Source of the DNA: Candidatus Acidiferrales bacterium
GTDB taxonomy: Bacteria > Patescibacteriota > Microgenomatia > Levybacterales > UBA12049
DNA length: 64,000 nucleotides
Assembly (NCBI GenBank): GCA_035533875.1
Contig: DATLSZ010000029.1
Span: 31,636-95,635 of the forward strand
Direction: 5' to 3'
The translations under genes were made by a program, and so were the position numbers. The notes below the pieces were generated by a model, which did no database searches, was not told the DNA's origin, and worked only from the letters and a program-made list of their open reading frames with translations. Numbering within the stretch: position 1 is the stretch's first letter; the number at the start of each line of letters is the position of its first letter. Shown in pieces: positions 2,319 to 12,394 of the stretch.

Positions 2319-2783
2319 ATGCATTGTCCGTACTGTGGAAGTAAAGAATCAGAAGTAGTCGAAACACGTGAGAGCTCCGATATGGATACAATTAGAAGAA
2401 GGAGAGCGTGTCTGGTCTGCACCAAACGGTTTACGACATATGAACGGGTCGAGCATGTCCAGCTGATCGTTATCAAAAAGGATGGCAAGCGGGAACAGTT
2501 TGCTCTTGAGAAACTTAAGAGCGGTATTCTCAAAGCATGTGAGAAGACAACTGTTCCGGCAGATACTATAGAGAAGATGGTGCATGAGATCGCACGGGAG
2601 CTGCGTACCATGGGGTCGCTTGAAGTGAAAAGCGAATTGATTGGCGATATGGTAGCCAAGCGTCTGAAGAAACTTGATAAAGTTGCCTATATCCGCTTTG
2701 CCAGTGTCTTCAAAAGGTTTGTCGATGTAGAAGATTTTGAGAAAGAAGTAAAACAATTAATAGTAAATAAGCAGACATTATGA
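2319..2783 (+). CDS. nrdR: transcriptional repressor NrdR (Zn ribbon plus ATP-cone)
   Basis: Starts MHCPYCG and carries a second CxxC (CLVC), as in NrdR. The following ATP-cone region matches the NrdR pattern (RRRxC, VIKKDGxRE). Confidence 0.9.
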   Translation: MHCPYCGSKESEVVETRESSDMDTIRRRRACLVCTKRFTTYERVEHVQLIVIKKDGKREQFALEKLKSGILKACEKTTVPADTIEKMVHEIARELRTMGSLEVKSELIGDMVAKRLKKLDKVAYIRFASVFKRFVDVEDFEKEVKQLIVNKQTL

Positions 2784-3190
2784 AGTTACACACAGAAATA
2801 ATTACTTTATGCGATTATGCACTGATATCGCGAGAAGGGAAATTAAGTATCAACGGAATTTTTGATGAGCTCCGGGTGCAGAAATTTCCCGGCGGCATCG
2901 CACGAGCTTTTTTTGTCGCGACACTGAGGGGGAAAGCGGATACATCATATAAATTGACGATCAAGACGGAGAACGGCAGTAAGGCGCTTAATACACTCAA
3001 TCTTGAAGTGCATACAAGTATGAACGGGAAGAACAATATTATTTTGGAGTTGGTGAATTTGGGGTTTGAGAAAGAGGGAGAGTACAAGTTTGTTATTTAT
3101 GATGGAAAAGATGAAGTCGGCTCGACACAGTTAAAAGTGATGGCAGCCGAACAGCCGAGTGAGGGAGTAAAATACAAGTTACCGAATTAA
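2780..3190 (+). CDS. hypothetical protein translationally coupled to nrdR (ATGA overlap)
   Basis: Its ATG overlaps the nrdR stop codon. It is a 136-aa ORF with no recognisable motif. Confidence 0.5.
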   Translation: MKLHTEIITLCDYALISREGKLSINGIFDELRVQKFPGGIARAFFVATLRGKADTSYKLTIKTENGSKALNTLNLEVHTSMNGKNNIILELVNLGFEKEGEYKFVIYDGKDEVGSTQLKVMAAEQPSEGVKYKLPN

Positions 3191-3485: not shown

Positions 3486-5921
3486 ATGAAAATTGATGGC
3501 GTAAGAGAAAAAGTATTTTTAGACAGATATGCACTCAAAGGTGCAGAAGGCGAGCTCTTGGAGAACACTCCGCAGGAGATGTGGCAGCGTGTCGCCAGTG
3601 GCATTGCCAAACAAGAGAAAAAAGTCAAACAAGCCAAGTGGGAAAAAGAATTCTACCGTGTCCTTGAAGACTTCAAATTTGTTCCTGGCGGACGTATCCT
3701 TTCCGGTGCCGGCACCGGCTATCAGGTGACATACTTTAATTGTTTTGTCATCCCAAATCCCAAAGATTCCCGGCATGGTATCCTTGAATCACTCGGGCAG
3801 CTGATCGAGATACAGTCTCGATCCGGCGGTGTGGGGTTGAACCTTTCATCCCTGCGACCTCGCGGAGCCCGGGTCAAGAAAGTTAACGGTACCTCATCAG
3901 GTCCGGTGAATTGGGCAACACTCTTCTCAGTCGCGACACATGATATCGTCCAGCAAGGTGGATCCAGACGCGGCGCGACGATGCTGATGCTGCATGATTG
4001 GCATCCTGATGTTGAGGAATTTATTACCGTCAAACAGGATCTGACCAAGATCAATGGTGCTAATTTATCGGTCTGTGTCTCAGATGGGTTCATGGAAGCG
4101 GTCAAAGCAGATAAAGATTGGGATTTGGTCTATCCTGAGCTGAGTGATCCGCATTATGATGCGGAGTGGGATGGCGATATCAACGAATGGAGAGAAAAAG
4201 GATACAAAATCAAAGTTTACAAAACAGTCAAAGCAAAAGACCTGTGGGAGCTCATCTGCACCGCTGCATGGCGCTCTGCCGAACCGGGTTTACACTTTTT
4301 GGAACGCAGCAACAAGAGAAGCAACACCTGGTATTTTGAGAAATTGCTTGCCACCAATCCATGCGGCGAGCAGCCGCTTGGCGGATGGGCTGTGTGTAAT
4401 TTGGGCGCGATGAATCTGGCTGCCTATGTCAAAGATGCGGACCTCAAGAATGACAAAGCAGGCTGGTTTGATTATGAGGCGTTCGGAAAAGATGTCCAAG
4501 TCGCGATGCGATTCCTGGATAACGTGATCGATGACACGTATTACTTCTTTAAAGAAAATGAGAAAGTTGCCAAAGATATCCGCCGGACAGGGCTGGGCAT
4601 CATGGGAATTGCCGATACCTTTATCCAGATGAAGATCCGATATGGATCGGAAGAGTCGGAGAAAGTATCCAAAAAGATTTTTAAAGCCCTCCGCGACAAT
4701 GCGTATATCGCGTCTTCCGATCTGGCAAAAGAAAAAGGTGCATTCCCGAAGTTCGATCGCGATAAATATCTGAAAGGCTATCATATCAAAGCCCTGCCGC
4801 CTGAAATCCGCAAGAAGATCGCTGATCAGGGGATCAGAAATGCTGTTCTTTTAACGATCGCGCCGACCGGTACCACCAGTCTTTTGGCAGGTGTTTCAAG
4901 TGGCGTTGAGCCGGTGTATGAATTTGAATATTCTCACAATGGGCGGCTTGGCAAACAAATGGTTTACCACGGTCTTTATGGTGAATGGAAAGAAGCACAT
5001 CCTGATGAAGAACGTCCCGATTACTTTGTCGGCGCCAATGATCTGACACCTGATGATCATGTAAAGATTCAGGCGATCGCGCAGGAATATATTGATTCCT
5101 CGATCTCAAAGACCGTCAATGCGCCCAACTCCCACACGGTTGAAGACGTCAAAAATCTCTATATGTCTGCATATGATAACGGACTCAAAGGGGTGACATA
5201 CTTCCGTGACGGATCACGGATGGGCGTACTGCAGCGTGAGGAAAAAAAGGAAGAGAAAGTGCAGGAACAAGTGCCTACCGTCATCGAAAAACCGGTTGTT
5301 CCGATAACACCTCGTATCGCACGTCCGATGGTACTTACCGGGGTGACCTACAAAGCAGAAAGTCCGACAGGAAAAGTGTATGTCACGATTAATAATGATG
5401 AAAAGGGTGATATGTTTGAGGTTTTTATCAATCATGGAAAGAGCGGATCTGATCTTATGGCACTTGCGGACGCGCTCGGCCGGATGGTTTCATTTGTCCT
5501 TCGAATCCACAGTCCGGTTCCTGCCCGGGAGCGGGTCCGCGAAATCGTGTCAGAACTCGCGGGTATCGGCGGCAGCCGCAGCAGCGGTTTTGGGGAGAAC
5601 AGAGTCCGGTCACTGCCTGATGCTATTTCAAAAGTCCTTGCCAGGCATTGCGAATTCCGCGTTAACGGTAAAGTCGAAGACAGCGTGCAATTTTTGCAGC
5701 GGATGAGCAACGGACATGGCAATAACCATGCACAGATCGCACAGTCAATTGAGGAGCCACATGAAGAGGTTGTCTCCAGCCAATTGGCACTGCCGCAAAC
5801 CGGTGTGCACAGCGGCGCCTCAACATCACTCTTTGATATCTGTCCTGAGTGTGGATCGGGGAGCTTTGCGTACGAAGAAGGCTGCAAAAAATGCTATGCA
5901 TGCGGATACTCTGAGTGTTAA
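3486..5921 (+). CDS. nrdJ: adenosylcobalamin-dependent ribonucleoside-triphosphate/diphosphate reductase (class II RNR) with C-terminal Zn-ribbon tail
   Basis: Class II RNR hallmarks are present: NCFVIP, the catalytic region NPCGEQPL, and a C-terminal CPECGSG...CKKCYACG. No intein is apparent. Confidence 0.9.
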   Translation: MKIDGVREKVFLDRYALKGAEGELLENTPQEMWQRVASGIAKQEKKVKQAKWEKEFYRVLEDFKFVPGGRILSGAGTGYQVTYFNCFVIPNPKDSRHGILESLGQLIEIQSRSGGVGLNLSSLRPRGARVKKVNGTSSGPVNWATLFSVATHDIVQQGGSRRGATMLMLHDWHPDVEEFITVKQDLTKINGANLSVCVSDGFMEAVKADKDWDLVYPELSDPHYDAEWDGDINEWREKGYKIKVYKTVKAKDLWELICTAAWRSAEPGLHFLERSNKRSNTWYFEKLLATNPCGEQPLGGWAVCNLGAMNLAAYVKDADLKNDKAGWFDYEAFGKDVQVAMRFLDNVIDDTYYFFKENEKVAKDIRRTGLGIMGIADTFIQMKIRYGSEESEKVSKKIFKALRDNAYIASSDLAKEKGAFPKFDRDKYLKGYHIKALPPEIRKKIADQGIRNAVLLTIAPTGTTSLLAGVSSGVEPVYEFEYSHNGRLGKQMVYHGLYGEWKEAHPDEERPDYFVGANDLTPDDHVKIQAIAQEYIDSSISKTVNAPNSHTVEDVKNLYMSAYDNGLKGVTYFRDGSRMGVLQREEKKEEKVQEQVPTVIEKPVVPITPRIARPMVLTGVTYKAESPTGKVYVTINNDEKGDMFEVFINHGKSGSDLMALADALGRMVSFVLRIHSPVPARERVREIVSELAGIGGSRSSGFGENRVRSLPDAISKVLARHCEFRVNGKVEDSVQFLQRMSNGHGNNHAQIAQSIEEPHEEVVSSQLALPQTGVHSGASTSLFDICPECGSGSFAYEEGCKKCYACGYSEC

Positions 5922-5924
5922 TTG

Positions 5925-5954
5925 AGCGTCTAGCTGCTAGCGTTTAGCGTCTAG
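5925..5954. repeat. third copy of the 30-nt AGCGTYTAG repeat array
   Basis: AGCGTCTAG-ctgct-AGCGTTTAGCGTCTAG, the same 9-mer/N5/16-mer architecture as the array at 2208-2238. Confidence 0.6.
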
Positions 5955-5961
5955 TTTTACA

Positions 5962-6105
5962 ATTTAAGAGGAAATCACGGTGGAAATCCGTGGCTGTGCC
6001 GCAACTGTTCCCGCAAGGGATCCCCGAGAGGGGAAAAGCCAGAAAACGTTTTATCCCGAGCAGGAAATTATGACATAATCCTTCTGTTCGTGGAAGGATT
6101 TTTTT
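5962..6105 (+). ncRNA. cobalamin (AdoCbl) riboswitch with intrinsic-terminator expression platform
   Basis: Contains GGTGGAAATCCGTGGCTGTGCCGCAACTGT, which is close to the B12-box consensus (GGTGnnAAnCC...GCTGnnCCCGCAACTGTAA), and a downstream AGCCAGA. A hairpin ATCCTTC-tgttcgtg-GAAGGAT followed by T7 ends immediately before the ATG at 6106. Confidence 0.8.
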
Positions 6106-6654
6106 ATGCCGATTTATACAAGAACTGGAGACAAAGGAAAAACCTCGCTTTTTGACGGCACTCGCGTTCTGAAATCTCATAAGCGAGTTGAAACATATGG
6201 TACCATTGATGAGCTCAACAGTACCATTGGGGTTGCCGTTGCTGAGATTAAGGATTTAGGATTAAAGATTAAAGATTTGCCAGAAGAGTTAGAGAACATA
6301 CAGCATGATTTGTTCGCAATTGGTTCGGCACTGGCGATGCCGCATCCGATTCCTGTTGCAGGCCTGGAGAAGCGTGCGAAAGAGTTTGAAAAACTTATTG
6401 ATAGTCTCACGGGAGAAATGCCTGAATTAAAACAATTTATCCTCCCCGGCGGTGGAAAAGCAGGATCCCTTCTACATGTCTGCAGGACAATTACCCGCAG
6501 AGCCGAGAGGCAATTGGTTGCTCTTATTCAGAAAGAAGAAGTTGATGAGTCAATTGTTGTGTACCTTAATAGGCTATCGGATTTGTTCTTCACGATGGCG
6601 AGATATGTTAATCAAATTGAAAAGAGAAAAGAAATTATTTGGAAAAAGAAATAA
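6106..6654 (+). CDS. pduO: PduO-type ATP:cob(I)alamin adenosyltransferase
   Basis: The N-terminus MPIYTRTGDKGKTSLFDG is the signature of the PduO/MMAB family. Confidence 0.88.
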   Translation: MPIYTRTGDKGKTSLFDGTRVLKSHKRVETYGTIDELNSTIGVAVAEIKDLGLKIKDLPEELENIQHDLFAIGSALAMPHPIPVAGLEKRAKEFEKLIDSLTGEMPELKQFILPGGGKAGSLLHVCRTITRRAERQLVALIQKEEVDESIVVYLNRLSDLFFTMARYVNQIEKRKEIIWKKK

Positions 6655-6674
6655 GATTTAAGATTAATGATTGA

Positions 6675-6719
6675 AGATTAAAGAATATTCTTAAATCCTA
6701 AATCTTATATCTTTAATCT
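6675..6719 (+). other. hairpin after pduO (AGATTAAAG ... CTTTAATCT stem with inner palindrome AAGAATATTCTT)
   Basis: A 9-bp inverted repeat at 6675-6683 and 6711-6719. No clear T-run follows it, so it may be a terminator or a structural element. Confidence 0.35.
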
Positions 6720-6720
6720 A

Positions 6721-6899
6721 ATTTGGGTGAATCTCGTGTAAATCGAGAGCTGTGCCGCAACTGTGAACTCCTCTAATGGAGTGAGCCAGATCCCCACATC
6801 CCGTTTGACGGGATAAAAAATCTTCCGAGCAGAAGTCCTTTTTTTGTGGACTCCTCGGATGGCCCTACGGCAAGCTCAGGGCAAGCGAGGAGTTTTTTT
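6721..6899 (+). ncRNA. second cobalamin riboswitch; expression platform sequesters the RBS GAGGAG in a 7-bp stem followed by T7
   Basis: Contains GGTGAATCTCGTGTAAATCGAGAGCTGTGCCGCAACTGTGA plus AGCCAGATCCCC. ACTCCTC (6851-6857) pairs with GAGGAGT (6887-6893), followed by TTTTTTT and the ATG at 6900. Confidence 0.75.
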
Positions 6900-8273
6900 A
6901 TGGCAGGAAAAGAAGGGTATACGCAACCTTTTACTGTAAACAATCTAAAACAGTTTATTCCTTCTCTGTATATTTCTCCTGAGAGTAGGATACCTTATGT
7001 GTGGGATGCGAGAGAGATAGAGAGACGAGGTTTTTCTGGAGGTTTGCTTGATCAGCATATCAGGCATTTTGATAGAAATTGGAAGGTCGAAGGACTACCA
7101 CCTGATTGGTTTCGGTTACAAAGTAAGACTGGCAGGCATATAGGATTTAGTATGAATTCTCAAATGGATCTTTTAGGTAATGTAACAAATTCAGAAGTAG
7201 CAACATGGATTCCAAAAACCGTACAGGATTTGCGCGGTTTTAAGCTGGAATATCTGACAGATCATATCGTATATCCCTGTAAGTATGAACGAAGCAGCAG
7301 TGATCCTACACGACTTGAAAATAGGCATTATGGGTACACCGATATCATTGATACGGTTTCAGCAGATGAGCGTGGTGGTTCGGTACGACGGAGTTTGCAA
7401 GAAATGAAAGCGTTTTTTTTGGACGATGATACTCCAGATGGCTCCATTGCTGTTATGGTAAGTCCGAGAGGAGAGACAGGGTTGAGAACCGACGATGGCA
7501 AACTCATACAGTACCCCGACTCTTATTTTTTCTTTATGGTTAAAGAGGGGGATACCGTTCATAATTTTACTTTGAAAACTGATTTTAGTATTGCTGAATG
7601 TCGAGACGTTATCGCGCGATTAACAGGTGTTACGCTGCCTGTTGATGCTCCACTTGAACAATATGTCCGGACAATTGCAAAAATTAAGCCCGGAGGTCAC
7701 GATGCAACTCCTGATGTAACGGAAATTGTTGGCGTCCTTGAACAGGTTCGACCGGAATATGCTTTTACATCTGAAGGCAGAAATGAAAAAATAACGTGGC
7801 GTGATGTCTATCAAGACATCCGTCAAAGAGATCAACTGTACGAGTTTAGTGAAAAAACAAACATGATTATTAATGAATTTGAAGCATATTGTCTTCAGGG
7901 CAATCATACAAAGTTGGAGTATCAAAAAGCCCTTGCGGCAACAATCCTACGAATGTCAAAGGTATTTTTTCTCGAAGAAAACTATCCGGAAGGGGCGGTT
8001 CCTTTAGTATCCAATCAATGGTCAACGGTGAGACCTCCGTTGGCTACGTATGGTGACGTTCTTACAGCTACAACAAAGCGTCCCGGCTGTTCGGGAGGAG
8101 GTTCCGGTGAATCTCTCTTTGTTAAGTCTCCTGACGGGGTAAGACGTGGTGAAACTGATTGGTTTACTTGTCCGAAGTGTCACTATAAAGCGGATGGTCC
8201 GATAGGCGATACGTGTCCAAAATGTAAAATAACAAAACAAGAATATGCCGAATCAGGAGGTAAGGCATGTTAA
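6900..8273 (+). CDS. hypothetical 458-aa protein with C-terminal double-CxxC zinc ribbon, under cobalamin-riboswitch control
   Basis: The six-frame ORF begins at 6846, inside the riboswitch. The ATG at 6900 follows the sequestered GAGGAG RBS. The C-terminus is CPKCHYKADGPIGDTCPKC. No recognisable catalytic motif. Confidence 0.6.
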   Translation: MAGKEGYTQPFTVNNLKQFIPSLYISPESRIPYVWDAREIERRGFSGGLLDQHIRHFDRNWKVEGLPPDWFRLQSKTGRHIGFSMNSQMDLLGNVTNSEVATWIPKTVQDLRGFKLEYLTDHIVYPCKYERSSSDPTRLENRHYGYTDIIDTVSADERGGSVRRSLQEMKAFFLDDDTPDGSIAVMVSPRGETGLRTDDGKLIQYPDSYFFFMVKEGDTVHNFTLKTDFSIAECRDVIARLTGVTLPVDAPLEQYVRTIAKIKPGGHDATPDVTEIVGVLEQVRPEYAFTSEGRNEKITWRDVYQDIRQRDQLYEFSEKTNMIINEFEAYCLQGNHTKLEYQKALAATILRMSKVFFLEENYPEGAVPLVSNQWSTVRPPLATYGDVLTATTKRPGCSGGGSGESLFVKSPDGVRRGETDWFTCPKCHYKADGPIGDTCPKCKITKQEYAESGGKAC

Positions 8274-8280
8274 TAACGTC

Positions 8281-8430
8281 ATGAAGAATACCAATGATTG
8301 TGATATCTGTTACAAAATTATTTGCCGGCAGTGCGGGTGGGAAGCTGATGACGGTGCTGTGTTACAGATACAAAAAGGAGAGATGACTGCTTGCCCTCTA
8401 TGTGGTTGGCAACCCGGAGAAGATAGGTAA
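8281..8430 (+). CDS. rubredoxin-like small metal-binding protein (three CxxC pairs)
   Basis: CRQCGWEADDG and CPLCGW resemble the rubredoxin CxxCGY...CPxCG knuckles. Spacing between them is shorter than in canonical rubredoxin and there is an extra CDIC. The start is ambiguous (8245 or 8281). Confidence 0.4.
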   Translation: MKNTNDCDICYKIICRQCGWEADDGAVLQIQKGEMTACPLCGWQPGEDR

Positions 8431-8526: not shown

Positions 8527-8555
8527 TTGACATCCCATAATATTTATACTATAAT
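8527..8555 (+). promoter_or_regulatory. consensus sigma70 promoter TTGACA-N17-TATAAT, 9 nt upstream of the ATG at 8565 (leaderless transcript predicted)
   Basis: Exact consensus hexamers with a 17-nt spacer read in the sequence. The -10 ends 9 nt before the start codon. Confidence 0.55.
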
Positions 8556-8564
8556 ACCTTCATT

Positions 8565-8906
8565 ATGTCAGCAGAATGGCGAGTTACTCGTCCAGAAAAT
8601 GTAGACCCTAGAATCAAAGAAGCAAGGGTAGAAGCGCAACTTAATGAATTTGCGTCTAATAGGCGTGCTTTAGCAACAAGTAGAGGTTTGAAGGCTTGGG
8701 GTTTTGGTACAGCACTTGCTGGAGGAGCAGTTGTTTTAGCTGCTACTGCATTACTACCTTTCGTCCCGGCCGCCGCAGTTACCTATGTTGCTGCATCCGC
8801 AGCAGTAGGTAGTTTTGCATGGCCATTGGGTCTTTTGGTCATGGGCTTTGGTAAAGCAAAAGAATCTGTTAACGGTTTCACAAGAAACAAGCTAGCTAAA
8901 GCCTAA
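8565..8906 (+). CDS. small membrane protein (two TM helices)
   Basis: Hydrophobic Ala/Gly/Leu-rich segments; no other motif recognised. Confidence 0.5.
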   Translation: MSAEWRVTRPENVDPRIKEARVEAQLNEFASNRRALATSRGLKAWGFGTALAGGAVVLAATALLPFVPAAAVTYVAASAAVGSFAWPLGLLVMGFGKAKESVNGFTRNKLAKA

Positions 8907-8917
8907 ACTTTACCACT

Positions 8918-9247
8918 ATGGAACCTTCATATAAAGATCTGCTTTTACAAGTTCTTACGGTAATGGGTTACCGAAACAAAGAGACCTATGCTACGGAATT
9001 TGAAGAGACGAATCATATAGAAGCAGTGACGAACTGTATGGAGATGCTTCCTGTTTCTCTACGAGAAAAAATAAAAACAAAAGAGATTGATGCTGCAGAG
9101 GCTATAAAGAATATCCCTCATGACCTCTATGAAAAGGAATTAACAACAGTATCCACAACCGCGCTTTTTTCATTACTTGATTATATGAGACCAGTGCTTA
9201 CCAATGACCAAAAGCAAGAAATAGTCGATATCATTACCGCTTATTAA
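8918..9247 (+). CDS. hypothetical protein
   Basis: 109-aa ORF lying in the operon between 8565 and 10013. Confidence 0.45.
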   Translation: MEPSYKDLLLQVLTVMGYRNKETYATEFEETNHIEAVTNCMEMLPVSLREKIKTKEIDAAEAIKNIPHDLYEKELTTVSTTALFSLLDYMRPVLTNDQKQEIVDIITAY

Positions 9248-9293
9248 TCTGCATTTCATTGTTTCGGGAGCCTTATCATGTTAATATAGGAGT

Positions 9294-10010
9294 ATGGATC
9301 CGAGTACACCTGCTGCCCAAGACGTGCAGAATCAAACGCCTGCTGATCAGCCTGTAAATCAAGCGCAACAGGCGACATCAGTGCCTCCTGATAATACGGC
9401 ACAACCTGCGTCGCAACCGCCACTACCGAAGCCGCAAGCGCCAAAGCATCAGATATCAGTGGGTAATATAGAAGCAGGATCTTCTGTCGTTGAGGATGGA
9501 GATGAGGATGACGATGACGAAGAATTGATGGTTTCTCCTCAGGAAACCAAGAATCGGATGGTTCTGGGACAGAATGAAGGAGAAGACGAAGATGAGACAG
9601 CCACAGTTGTCGCAGGTCAGCAAGGTGTCGCAGATATCCAGGAAAATGTGGAGTTACAACCTTCAGCGCCCGAATTGTCAGTAACAGGGAGTCCTGAGGT
9701 TGAGAAAGTTATTGAGCGTACTGCAGATCAGGAGAAGCCTGCGATACCGAAAGAAGTGATGGATGCGGGAGTTACCCATTCCGGTCCTGGTGTGATCATG
9801 GTTGAGCAGCAGAATAACTTTGGAGTTACGCAGATGCCGATATCCTATCAGCAGGCAGCTGTGCAGATAAAAAAAACAAAGTTTAAACAGTCCAAGCACT
9901 GGCTTTTGGGAAAGATCATGTATATCTGGAGGAAGCTGCAAACAAAAACAAGTAAGGAGAAAATGCCAGAAGAAGATACGCAAGAAGAAAACAGTATAGT
10001 ATTACCATAA
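9294..10010 (+). CDS. acidic, low-complexity (Q/P/D/E-rich) hypothetical protein
   Basis: Runs of DGDEDDDDEE and a Pro/Gln-rich N-terminus. It stops 3 nt before the next gene. Confidence 0.45.
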   Translation: MDPSTPAAQDVQNQTPADQPVNQAQQATSVPPDNTAQPASQPPLPKPQAPKHQISVGNIEAGSSVVEDGDEDDDDEELMVSPQETKNRMVLGQNEGEDEDETATVVAGQQGVADIQENVELQPSAPELSVTGSPEVEKVIERTADQEKPAIPKEVMDAGVTHSGPGVIMVEQQNNFGVTQMPISYQQAAVQIKKTKFKQSKHWLLGKIMYIWRKLQTKTSKEKMPEEDTQEENSIVLP

Positions 10011-10012
10011 TT

Positions 10013-12394
10013 ATGCAGTTACAATCAATAACATCACAAAATATAACAAGCGTTATTTTATCGGCATTTTTGATTCTCATAGGACTCGTTCTTTTGGCGG
10101 GGCTTTTGTGGGGGCTATTCTTCATTTTTGTTCTTTGGCTTCGCTACCGAAATCGTGAATCCGAATCGCTTAATTCTATTCTCTTGCAGGTAACCGTTCC
10201 AAAAGAAAATGAAATCAAAATCGATGCAGCCGAACAACTTTTTGCAAGTCTTTATGCGCTTTATGGAACGACAAGATTTGAATATTTCAGACATCAGCCG
10301 CACATTTCTTTTGAGATTGTCGGGTTGCCCGGAGACATACGATTTTACGTCAATGTCCCGGCAAAATACCGTGATTTTGTTGAAAAACAAATAAATGGTG
10401 CATATCCTGAAGCGGATATCCTGCCAGTAAATGATCCTGCCGCCAAGCAGCGTGATGGTACAGTGATCGGAACGGAATATAATATTTTTTCAGAGAATGG
10501 CAAAGTCGCCTTCATGTGGATGAATTTGAAAGGAGCAAATTATTTACCGATTAAAACATACAAAGATCTTCCTGTTGACCCGCTAGCACAAATTACTACT
10601 ATTTTGGGGAAGATGAGTGAAGGAGAGGGCGCTGCTATTCAGATACTTATCCAGCCCTCGGGTCCAGAATGGCAAAAAGTAGGTCGTGGGTATATCGGCA
10701 ATGTCAAAAAAAATGAATCAAATCCTGAGAAGGCAAGTTATAAAACCGATGCTAAGGAACTTGAAGCAGTTGAAAACAAACTCAGCAAGCCTGGATTTTA
10801 TACAACGATCAGGGTGGTCGTCTGCTCCAATACACAAGAACAGGCAAATGCACATCTTAATAACATCAGAGGAGCATTCAGTCAATTTAATTATGTAAAT
10901 TCCTTCAAAAAACGCTGGCAATTTTTCAGAGGCTTATTTATGACTGATTTCATTTATCGTTATTTCCCAATGTTCCGAGAGTCATCGGTATTAACTAGTG
11001 AAGAATTAGCTAGTATTTACCATTTTCCCAACAAAAGCATCGGCACACCAGGCATTCACTGGCTTTATTCTAAACGCTATGCTGCGCCATCCACTATTGC
11101 AACATCGGGATTATATCTGGGAAAAAGCACATTCAGAGGATCATCGCGTCCCATTTTTGTCGATCGTGAGGACAGGAGGCGGCATTTCTATATCATCGGA
11201 AAGACCGGTACCGGTAAAACTGAGTTTCTCAAGACGATGATCACACAGGATATTCTCAATGGTGAGGGCTGCGCTGTAATTGACCCGCATGGAGACTTGG
11301 TGGAAGACATTCTTAAGATTATTCCTCCAAAACGTGCTGAAGACGTCATTCTTTTTGATCCTTCAGATTATGATCGCCCGATGGGCTTTAATATGCTGGA
11401 AGCGGAGACTGAGCAGCAGAAGCATTTCGCCGTCAACTCTATCATAGGACTTATGTATAAGTTGTTTGATCCGAACAAAACCGGTATCGTTGGACCGCGG
11501 TTTGAGCATGCCGTCCGAAACGCTATGTTGACCGTCATGTATGAAAAGGGGAGTACCCTTATTGAGGTTATGCGTGTTCTGACTGATCCTACCTATGTAC
11601 AGGAAATGCTGCCGAAAGTTCAGGATCCGATTATTAGGAGATATTGGACGGATCAGATTGCGCAGACATCAGACTTTCATAAATCGGAAGTCTTGGATTA
11701 TATTACATCAAAATTTGGGCGGTTTGTTACGAACAAAATGATCCGTAATATCATCGGTCAGTCGGATAGTGCGTTTTCATTCCGCAAAGTCATGGATGAA
11801 CAAAAGATACTCCTTATCAATCTTTCCAAAGGAATCATCGGTGAAGAAAATTCCAACTTTTTGGGGCTTGTTCTTGTTCCGAAGATCTTGATTGCCGCTA
11901 TGTCACGGCAAGATATGCCAATGAGTGAAAGGAAAGATTTCTTCCTGTATGTCGACGAGTTCCAGAATTTTGCAACTCCTGATTTCGCGCAGATTCTTTC
12001 AGAGGCCCGAAAATACCGGCTTAACTTGATCGTTGCCAATCAGTTCATCGGTCAGATGGAAGAGGAGATCAAAAACGCTATCTTCGGTAACGTCGGTACC
12101 GTTGCCTCATTTCGTGTCGGTGTGACCGACGCAAGTTACCTGCAGCACGAGTTCCAACCAATATTCAGTGAACAGGATTTGATTAATGTTGATAAATTTA
12201 ACGCATATGTGCGGACCATTATCGGAGGAGAAACGGCAGAACCGTTCTCTCTTGACACAACCAAAGATCTCTCAAAAGAAAAATCGATGGAGAATCCGCG
12301 TGTTGCTCAGCTGGTGAAAGAATTATCGCGCTTGAAGTATGGGAAGACTGTGGCAACTGTCGAGGCTGAAATTGCTCAACGGTCACGACTTTAA
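10013..12394 (+). CDS. membrane-anchored FtsK/HerA/TraD-VirD4 superfamily P-loop ATPase (type IV secretion coupling-protein-like)
   Basis: Two N-terminal TM helices, Walker A GKTGTGKT near aa 395 and Walker B YVDEFQNF. The overall layout resembles TrwB/VirD4 with an extra roughly 300-aa N-terminal domain. Confidence 0.6.
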   Translation: MQLQSITSQNITSVILSAFLILIGLVLLAGLLWGLFFIFVLWLRYRNRESESLNSILLQVTVPKENEIKIDAAEQLFASLYALYGTTRFEYFRHQPHISFEIVGLPGDIRFYVNVPAKYRDFVEKQINGAYPEADILPVNDPAAKQRDGTVIGTEYNIFSENGKVAFMWMNLKGANYLPIKTYKDLPVDPLAQITTILGKMSEGEGAAIQILIQPSGPEWQKVGRGYIGNVKKNESNPEKASYKTDAKELEAVENKLSKPGFYTTIRVVVCSNTQEQANAHLNNIRGAFSQFNYVNSFKKRWQFFRGLFMTDFIYRYFPMFRESSVLTSEELASIYHFPNKSIGTPGIHWLYSKRYAAPSTIATSGLYLGKSTFRGSSRPIFVDREDRRRHFYIIGKTGTGKTEFLKTMITQDILNGEGCAVIDPHGDLVEDILKIIPPKRAEDVILFDPSDYDRPMGFNMLEAETEQQKHFAVNSIIGLMYKLFDPNKTGIVGPRFEHAVRNAMLTVMYEKGSTLIEVMRVLTDPTYVQEMLPKVQDPIIRRYWTDQIAQTSDFHKSEVLDYITSKFGRFVTNKMIRNIIGQSDSAFSFRKVMDEQKILLINLSKGIIGEENSNFLGLVLVPKILIAAMSRQDMPMSERKDFFLYVDEFQNFATPDFAQILSEARKYRLNLIVANQFIGQMEEEIKNAIFGNVGTVASFRVGVTDASYLQHEFQPIFSEQDLINVDKFNAYVRTIIGGETAEPFSLDTTKDLSKEKSMENPRVAQLVKELSRLKYGKTVATVEAEIAQRSRL

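Follow-up and report, generated by a model that had tools for sequence, protein, structure and literature searches.

Cobalamin riboswitches of class II comprise a P3-P6 four-way junction without the P2 arm, in which P6 carries a loop or a short hairpin and L5 and L13 form a kissing loop (PMC7367189). The B12 salvage operons governed by B12 riboswitches combine an adenosyltransferase gene (btuR, cobA or pduO) with Btu or ECF transport genes. The present analysis concerns a gene block in a 64-kb window of contig DATLSZ010000029.1 (the window being the whole stretch of 64,000 nucleotides analysed), in which pduO and an uncharacterised gene, hereafter X, are each preceded by a cobalamin riboswitch (RS1 and RS2, respectively), X being followed by a small open reading frame (ORF), mini49. 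From the evidence given below, we are highly confident that cobalamin represses X-mini49 as one unit, through an OFF riboswitch of class II type. The locus resembles the described salvage operons in that the adenosyltransferase and, in sister loci, uptake proteins are B12-repressed, but differs from them by an extra soluble protein family, X and its sister family Y, with its own second riboswitch. Both the riboswitch class and this type of regulon are already known; the new component is the X/Y protein superfamily, for which we know of no counterpart in characterised salvage operons.

The sequence-only reading of this DNA had placed two cobalamin riboswitches in tandem, the first before pduO and the second before the X ORF, and had named a covariance-model search as the means of checking them. 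At the Rfam gathering threshold (GA), the whole 64-kb window returns zero matches, whereas permissive settings disclose RF01482 (AdoCbl) at 6704-6847 (36.1 bits against a GA of 50, E 1e-4) and RF00174 at 5935-6057 (25.8 bits against a GA of 31.5, E 2.4e-4). A custom covariance model, R1, constructed from 12 leaders of other loci (alignment A6) with the window left out, recovers both elements and nothing else in the 64 kb:

5972..6067, + strand: aptamer of riboswitch 1, of the cobalamin class, ahead of pduO; R1 score 37 bits, E 4e-7.
6721..6836, + strand: riboswitch 2 aptamer plus P13, before X; R1 score 97.3 bits, E 1e-21.

The comparison set comprises 20 distinct loci encoding X relatives, designated by L numbers. 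Orthologous RS2 copies reach or exceed the GA of RF01689 (AdoCbl-II; 36.5 bits) in L002, L006, L007, L009, L014 and L024, with scores of 38.5-52 bits, and the orthologous leaders of L005 and L025 lie above the GA of RF00174. In addition, the nrdJ-pduO leaders of L002, L004, L006 and L007 lie above the GA of RF01689. Because this comparative evidence adds to the sub-threshold scores of the window copies, both leaders are regarded as genuine riboswitches. The tandem arrangement therefore stands; in the covariance check, the window copies lie below the Rfam thresholds, both are scored by the independent model and orthologues lie above GA.

The fold of RS2 was studied in 13 distinct leaders (alignment A4), with pairs counted in an explicit structure comprising P3, P4, P5, P6, the P6 extension, P13 and the downstream hairpin. 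In the window, the helices of the aptamer and P13 are located as follows:

6725-6727 with 6792-6794: P3.
6732-6736 with 6744-6748: P4.
6751-6759: P5-L5.
6761-6763 with 6787-6789: P6.
6767-6782: P6 extension hairpin.
6822-6835: P13.

Standard pairs occupy 97.1% of the cells, and both-sided changes occur at 10 pairs, located in P4, P5, P6 and the P6 extension, with P4 alone displaying UCUCG/CGAGA, CCAGG/CCUGG, GCUCG/CGAGC and GUUGG/CCAAC. The covariation score of this structure was matched by 0 of 500 shuffles, and control structures with slid partners reach a pairing of only 37-51%. Complementarity between the loops L5 (UGCCG) and L13 (CG(A)GCA) holds in 97% of cells and agrees with the universal L5-L13 kissing loop, both loops being essentially invariant and hence devoid of a covariation signal.

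The periphery of RS2 follows the class II plan, with the GGG of P3 placed after an unstructured AU-rich 5' flank and no P2 loop-stem-loop, which supports a Cbl-II-type aptamer. The features shared with the described class II switches (RF01689; Cbl-IIa/IIb, env8, PDB 4FRN) include (i) the P3-P6 four-way junction without P2; (ii) the conserved L4 sequence GGUG.AA.UCC, the GCCGCAACUG core and the loop or short hairpin of P6; and (iii) a putative L5-L13 kissing-loop hairpin together with an OFF platform that buries the ribosome-binding site (RBS). On the other hand, the window copies score below the Rfam gathering thresholds, one and the same hairpin here represents both terminator and RBS sequestor, the switch is embedded in a polycistronic block and, in most loci, directly follows the stop codon of pduO, and the orthologues alternate between IIa-like and IIb-like versions of P6. 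In this last respect, P6 ends in a loop only (6 nt) in six leaders (L002, L007, L009, L011, L014 and L022; A4 columns 54-75, window 6765-6783) and in a short hairpin of 4-7 bp in the other seven (the window, L001, L006, L008, L015, L019 and L020), so that a single orthologous set spans the published peripheral distinction between Cbl-IIa (loop-only) and Cbl-IIb (short hairpin). Because of this alternation, the preferred cobalamin form is not readable from the RS2 sequence.

The expression platform comprises two alternative structures, shown at the level of predicted pairing to be mutually exclusive:

6850..6899, + strand: sequestor/terminator (OFF), ACUCCUCG (6850-6857) paired with CGAGGAGU (6886-6893) over 8 bp, followed by U7 (6893-6899) and the ATG at 6900.
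6822..6859, + strand: anti-sequestor (ON), CUUCCGAG (6822-6829, the 5' half of P13) paired with CUCGGA(AG) (6854-6859).

The sequestor helix, which holds the RBS GAGGAG (6887-6892) inside its 3' arm, is 98% paired across the 13 leaders and is also part of the centroid structure computed for the window leader. The anti-sequestor (alignment helix 118-123/166-171) is 98.7% paired in the same leaders and displays compensating changes or insertions, CCGGAG with CUCUGG in L001 and U with G in L011. The sequence-only reading had described the RBS as sequestered in a 7-bp stem followed by a T-run; the burial of GAGGAG and the U-tract hold, whereas the stem measures 8 bp.

By analogy with characterised Cbl-II switches, we infer that RS2 binds cobalamin and that binding turns expression off. 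In the ligand-free state, CUUCCGAG would pair with the CUCGGA that forms part of the 5' arm of the hairpin further downstream, leaving the GAGGAG RBS free (ON). With cobalamin bound, P13 would form and could dock on L5 by the kissing loop (UGCCG with CG(A)GCA); since the ligand-stabilised P13 would leave the 5' arm free, ACUCCUCG would then pair with CGAGGAGU to build the terminator-like hairpin, with U7 following and the RBS buried (OFF). Expression of X-mini49 would thus be confined to conditions of cobalamin scarcity. In most loci the RS2 aptamer starts immediately behind the stop codon of pduO, and X therefore stands behind two switches in series.

Whether X follows a B12 riboswitch in related genomes, a question raised by the sequence-only reading, is answered by the comparison set: according to R1, an aptamer lies directly upstream of X or Y in 17 of the 20 distinct loci, the remaining three comprising L004 and L010, where X abuts pduO behind RS1, and L023, which is truncated. 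X or Y lies beside pduO in 18 of the 20 loci, in both orientations, with no pduO found within 6 kb in L027 and the contig of L025 being too short to tell. In L024, X (22% identity) is inverted and convergent with pduO, and displays its own RF01689 aptamer above GA; in L027, X (about 23-25% identity) is located away from nrdJ and pduO, beside genes of a type IV secretion system (T4SS), and the aptamer ends 4 nt before its start. The T4SS genes that adjoin X in L027 (259-5634) are PrgI/TraC/VirB4-like. The riboswitch-X link holds from 100% down to 22% protein identity, through rearrangements and in family Y, and because it survives in L024 and L027 the riboswitch is the most constant companion of X. 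Such persistence, otherwise hard to explain, indicates that B12-responsive expression of X is under selection. The association with a type IV coupling protein (T4CP) was also considered as that of a functional partner, but it is probably lineage synteny, being lost, as judged by homology, in L025 and L027.

The protein under this control and its two cysteine-bearing elements are encoded as follows:

6900..8273, + strand: X, a 457-aa soluble protein of an uncharacterised superfamily; AlphaFold model with mean local confidence (pLDDT) 82.9 and predicted template-modelling score (pTM) 0.72.
8085..8102, + strand: GCSGGG hinge of X, residues 396-401, holding the invariant Cys397.
8169..8225, + strand: C-terminal Cys4 zinc-ribbon of X, CPKC-x11-CPKC.

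X comprises a disordered N-terminus (residues 1-40), a structured core (about 50-398) that the AlphaFold model depicts as a five-stranded antiparallel sheet with helical bundles, a disordered linker (399-420, pLDDT<50), a Cys4 ribbon (424-442) and a C-terminal cysteine, Cys457. The maximum 19-residue hydropathy is 0.79, with neither a transmembrane (TM) segment nor a P-loop. No match to X was obtained in Pfam, NCBIfam, PHROGs or the sequences of the PDB, no significant fold match in the solved-structure and viral fold libraries searched, and the X and Y alignments, used as profiles against the PDB, returned eL43-type ribbon matches or spurious ones only; the ribbon of X itself has a weak eL43-type similarity (E 0.03). 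Likewise, a broad profile search from the 105-sequence alignment retrieved no further or annotated relative, and among 10 long X members no extra Pfam domain or fusion was detected. The earlier description of an ORF without recognisable resemblance agrees with the outcome in every library tried, its length being 457 aa rather than 458, and the CPKC...CPKC zinc ribbon reported at its end is found at residues 424-427 and 439-442. The X/Y superfamily is without detectable relatives in the sequence and fold libraries searched, and may represent a categorically new component.

Full-length homologs of X number 47 in an index of 5.8 billion proteins, all of them without a protein name, and in a HMMER scan run exhaustively over 1.84 billion representatives, 297 sequences match at E<=1e-3 and 141 of them reach E<=1e-10, their length being typically 400-530 aa; the superfamily thus amounts to about 300 clusters. 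The source labels include Levyibacteriota, Gottesmanbacteria, Patescibacteria and generic names of metagenome-assembled genomes; wherever the source names an organism, the members of the superfamily fall in bins of the Candidate Phyla Radiation (CPR)/Patescibacteria. Conservation was counted in a set of 105 diverse sequences drawn from X and Y: E117 and S188 do not vary at all; F83, R158, P189, G191, G396, G399 and G401 are conserved in at least 90%; and the polar core residues E117, R158, S188 and Y205 are all invariant or nearly so. The hinge cysteine was present in every sequence inspected, within GC[AN]GGG in X members and G[ST]C in Y members, and conservation of the four ribbon cysteines reaches at least 95%. 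Behind the disordered linker, the ribbon belongs to at least six unrelated sequence types across the X/Y members, and a cysteine at or beside the C-terminus occurs in 61 of the 105.

Three assignments to known functional classes were rejected. As a transporter of the Btu, ECF-CbrT, BtuM or DUF6580 type, X is disqualified by its solubility, the lack of a TM segment and the lack of Pfam or NCBIfam matches; as a ribonucleotide reductase (RNR) isozyme, by the absence of RNR Pfam domains, of a ten-stranded alpha/beta barrel in the model and of any RNR among the fold matches; and as an NTPase chaperone, by the absence of a P-loop.

The sister family Y comprises proteins of 345-405 aa, labelled 'rubrerythrin' by JGI, that are homologous to X over 300 columns (hhalign probability 99%, E 8e-18). 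Y occupies the slot of X in the order nrdR-nrdJ-pduO-Y, with the same riboswitch and platform before it. The second product of the X unit is mini49:

8281..8430, + strand: mini49, a 49-aa six-Cys ribbon protein, CxxC-x4-CxxCGW-x19-CPxCGW.

mini49 is kept after X in 10 loci, with all six cysteines invariant in the homologs; L005, L007, L008 and the Y loci lack it. Tails homologous to mini49 are displayed by the X members P0042, P0063, P0131, P0134 and P0169, the identity to the C-terminal tails of P0134 and P0042 amounting to 43-44% (E 5e-14 and 2e-13), and because of this Rosetta-stone link to fused tails mini49 is considered a free-standing version of the X tail module. The sequence-only reading had likened it to rubredoxin. 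The ORF and its CxxCGW and CPxCGW knuckles are indeed present, and the conserved CxxCG and CPxCG motifs are common to rubredoxins and zinc-ribbon mini-proteins; unlike rubredoxin, mini49 has its knuckles 19 residues apart, carries an extra N-terminal CxxC besides the four ribbon cysteines and is homologous to the tails of some X proteins. Rubredoxin was rejected as an assignment, since PF00301 gives no match at E<=1 and the likeness is limited to the knuckle motifs; in Pfam, only weak zinc-ribbon/zf matches are found (E 0.003-0.8).

The X-mini49 unit closes a block ordered on the + strand as nrdR, a DUF6941 gene, nrdJ, the RS1 leader (184 nt between nrdJ and pduO), pduO, the RS2 leader (245 nt between pduO and X), X and mini49. 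The remaining features of the block and its borders are:

2319..2783, + strand: nrdR, transcriptional repressor, at the head of the conserved block; TIGR00244 195.9 bits, Pfam Zn_ribbon_NrdR plus ATP-cone.
2780-3190, + strand: DUF6941 gene, between nrdR and nrdJ.
3486..5921, + strand: nrdJ, adenosylcobalamin (AdoCbl)-dependent class II RNR with a six-Cys C-terminal tail; TIGR02504 574.7 bits (cutoff 400), Pfam RNR barrel plus TSCPD.
6077..6105, + strand: riboswitch 1 terminator/sequestor hairpin plus T-run, abutting the pduO ATG; in the terminator scan, a 10-pair stem (6077-6100), then TTTTTATG.
6106..6654, + strand: pduO-type ATP:cob(I)alamin adenosyltransferase; PF01923 202.9 bits, TIGR00636 199.6 bits.
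6649..6724, no strand assigned: AT-rich 76-nt palindromic spacer between pduO and aptamer 2; inverted repeat I1, 39-nt arms, 79% complementary.
8527..8555, + strand: perfect sigma70-like promoter, TTGACA-17-TATAAT (12/12), just upstream of a 113-aa ORF at 8565.

The description of NrdJ as B12-dependent, with a C-terminal cysteine tail, proved correct, the number and order of cysteines in its tail, CPEC...CKKCYACGYSEC, matching the six-Cys pattern of the Cys-rich C-terminal domain (CRD) of class II RNRs (PMC5704485). The gene sits 5' of both riboswitches and hence outside their control. nrdR is syntenic in L001, L002, L020, L022 and L024. On the other side of the block, the promoter at 8527-8555 opens the next unit, comprising small ORFs and a T4CP-like ATPase, and thereby delimits X-mini49 at its 3' side. 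This next stretch (8565-12394) includes three small conserved ORFs ahead of a VirD4/TraD-like coupling ATPase (10013-12394; TrwB_AAD_bind, DUF87), and in most loci this coupling ATPase region keeps its synteny with the nrd-pduO-X block.

The palindromic spacer is missing from most related loci, where the aptamer directly follows the pduO stop, and a similar spacer is found in L009. It is made of GATTWAAGA-like units that also occur inside pduO (6245-6275), there encoding KDLGLKIKDL; either the insertion of a palindromic element or a hairpin acting as insulator could account for it. Small genes and mobile elements appear in the corresponding blocks elsewhere: L024 includes a DUF1653 gene between nrdJ and pduO (7897-8307), a small-gene insertion like the DUF6941 gene of the window; the nrdJ of L022 (1831-5364; product of 1177 aa) is split by an intein with a LAGLIDADG endonuclease domain; and group I intron matches (RF00028) lie near the block in L020 (12258-12450, 56 bits, above GA) and L024 (685-888, 47 bits, below GA). 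No tRNA gene was detected across the 64-kb window by Rfam or ARAGORN.

In four sister loci, RS1 is followed by genes for DUF4430 proteins, a prenyltransferase-type alpha/alpha-toroid protein and a DUF6580 membrane protein, and then by pduO. These putative B12-uptake genes, located between RS1 and pduO and including secreted DUF4430 proteins, occupy the following positions:

L008: 401-2917.
L009: 4224-5209.
L010: 4142-5215.
L015: 2033-5229.

The DUF6580 protein is weakly ECF-S-like, and DUF4430 and alpha/alpha toroids are similar to the two domains found in transcobalamin-type B12 binders; all three genes are read as probable uptake components. No homolog of DUF6580, DUF4430, the toroid or DUF1653 was found in the 64-kb window. 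With uptake and adenosylation covered by other genes, X would be an additional soluble component. Corrinoid 'capture', one of the roles suggested by the sequence-only reading, becomes less likely for X, because the protein is soluble and cytoplasmic and related loci have dedicated uptake genes.

We tentatively propose that X is a cytoplasmic cobalamin-processing or hand-off protein acting upstream of PduO or with it, an assignment to which we give somewhat less than an even chance; the explanation as a whole, an RS2 OFF switch together with cobalamin handling by X, comes close to an even chance without reaching it. A pocket formed by E117, R158, S188-P-x-G191, Y205 and D207 would hold the corrinoid, and the invariant Cys397 on the Gly-rich hinge would ligate cobalt as a thiolate or reduce it, so that the upper ligand would be removed or replaced and cob(II)alamin would result. 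A redox or docking arm would be provided by the tethered Cys4 ribbon together with the C-terminal cysteine or with mini49 in trans, and the product would be handed to PduO for adenosylation and then to NrdJ. Among the roles suggested by the sequence-only reading, the corrinoid processing factor is thus the one that we favour. More doubtful is the extension by which X/Y and mini49 would be the non-homologous counterpart of MMACHC/MMADHC in ultra-small CPR bacteria, readying scavenged cobalamins for PduO and NrdJ. The resemblance to MMACHC/CblC, MMADHC/CblD and Cys80 of BtuM lies in the proposed principle only, a protein or glutathione thiolate that acts on cobalt or its upper ligand before adenosylation; X is without sequence or fold similarity to them, and it is soluble whereas BtuM is a membrane protein. 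In BtuM, ligation of cobalt by Cys80 decyanates B12 (PMC6072759).

Several observations weigh against this assignment. X has no sequence or fold similarity to CblC, CblD, PduS, CobR, BtuM, Cob/Cbi enzymes, or Rossmann-type or other B12-binding domains; the C-terminal cysteine is absent in about 40% of the members; and the interchangeable ribbon types could reflect a purely structural or docking role rather than a redox one. If RS2 were selective for hydroxocobalamin (HOCbl), an HOCbl-processing enzyme would be repressed by its own substrate, which is odd. Finally, a B12-sparing substitute would be just as compatible with repression by B12.

This last point leads to the rival that survives best, although we regard it as improbable, namely that X, with mini49, is a back-up that replaces the need for NrdJ or AdoCbl, for example by providing deoxynucleotides through salvage or processing of imported DNA or nucleotides. 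A B12-sparing alternative enzyme had also been suggested, more speculatively, by the sequence-only reading. In other bacteria, metE and nrdDG/nrdAB are switched off by B12, and the OFF logic of RS2 is the same as that of such B12-independent isozymes. The conserved polar core residues E117, R158, S188 and Y205 are those of an enzyme-like core, but neither an RNR barrel nor a kinase P-loop, a nuclease or any other known catalytic fold can be recognised in X. The frequent presence nearby of a DNA-translocation ATPase of T4CP/T4SS type speaks for this rival, yet its synteny is lost in L025 and L027. The retention of the riboswitch in L027, where X lies away from pduO and nrdJ, also speaks for it; against this, X or Y adjoins pduO in nearly all of the comparison loci, and the grouping of pduO with uptake genes in related loci suggests a supply-chain regulon.

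Less probable again is a partner dedicated to NrdJ, in which X and mini49 would load or repair the NrdJ cofactor, as the MMAA/MMAB system serves methylmalonyl-CoA mutase, or donate electrons to the NrdJ CRD. The neighbourhood nrdJ-pduO-X is conserved, but X in L027 is not near nrdJ, and X lacks the NTPase motif of known B12 chaperones. The CRD of NrdJ is a flexible tail structured by Zn(Cys)4, whose terminal Cys pair shuttles electrons to the active site, and thioredoxins and glutaredoxins are reported not to be its reductant (PMC5704485). The architecture of X, comprising the Cys hinge, a flexible C-terminal arm of putative Zn(Cys)4 type and an extra cysteine as C-terminal residue, mirrors this CRD, and mini49 contributes a CxxC beyond its ribbon cysteines. 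The two differ in Cys spacing and sequence, in the replacement of the X ribbon by unrelated types and in the second Cys of the putative X pair, which is the hinge Cys397, outside the ribbon. The regulation also speaks against such a partner: a turnover factor would be most needed with B12 present, yet X is repressed by B12, and nrdJ, upstream of both riboswitches, is controlled by neither. That X is unrelated to B12, being a structural or regulatory zinc-ribbon protein or a T4SS-like partner linked to the riboswitch by lineage-specific accident, is very unlikely: eL43-type ribbons often bind nucleic acids, the ribbon of X is weakly of that type, T4SS/T4CP genes are frequent neighbours and no B12-related domain is detectable in X, but such an accident would hardly outlast the divergence and rearrangements over which the riboswitch-X link persists, or extend to family Y.

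B12 riboswitch regulons have repeatedly exposed missing steps of cobalamin uptake and processing. The X superfamily has so far been seen only in bins of CPR/Patescibacteria; no neighbouring gene is linked to it as tightly as a B12 riboswitch is, and in the block described here it adjoins the adenosyltransferase and NrdJ, which is the one obvious consumer of B12. The literature searches brought up no earlier account of the X/Y family, nor of how these CPR lineages handle B12. Because minimal genomes depend on scavenged cofactors, a dedicated and tightly regulated protein of this kind is unlikely to be dispensable. Outside eukaryotes, to our knowledge, it is poorly defined how the upper ligand is removed or reduced in the cytoplasm; a cobalamin-handling role of X could fill this gap between import and adenosylation in bacteria, and could bear on the reductant of CRD-type NrdJ, reported as unidentified. 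The conserved Cys hinge and the swappable ribbons provide clear experimental handles on a locus that points to an undescribed step of B12 handling in CPR cells.

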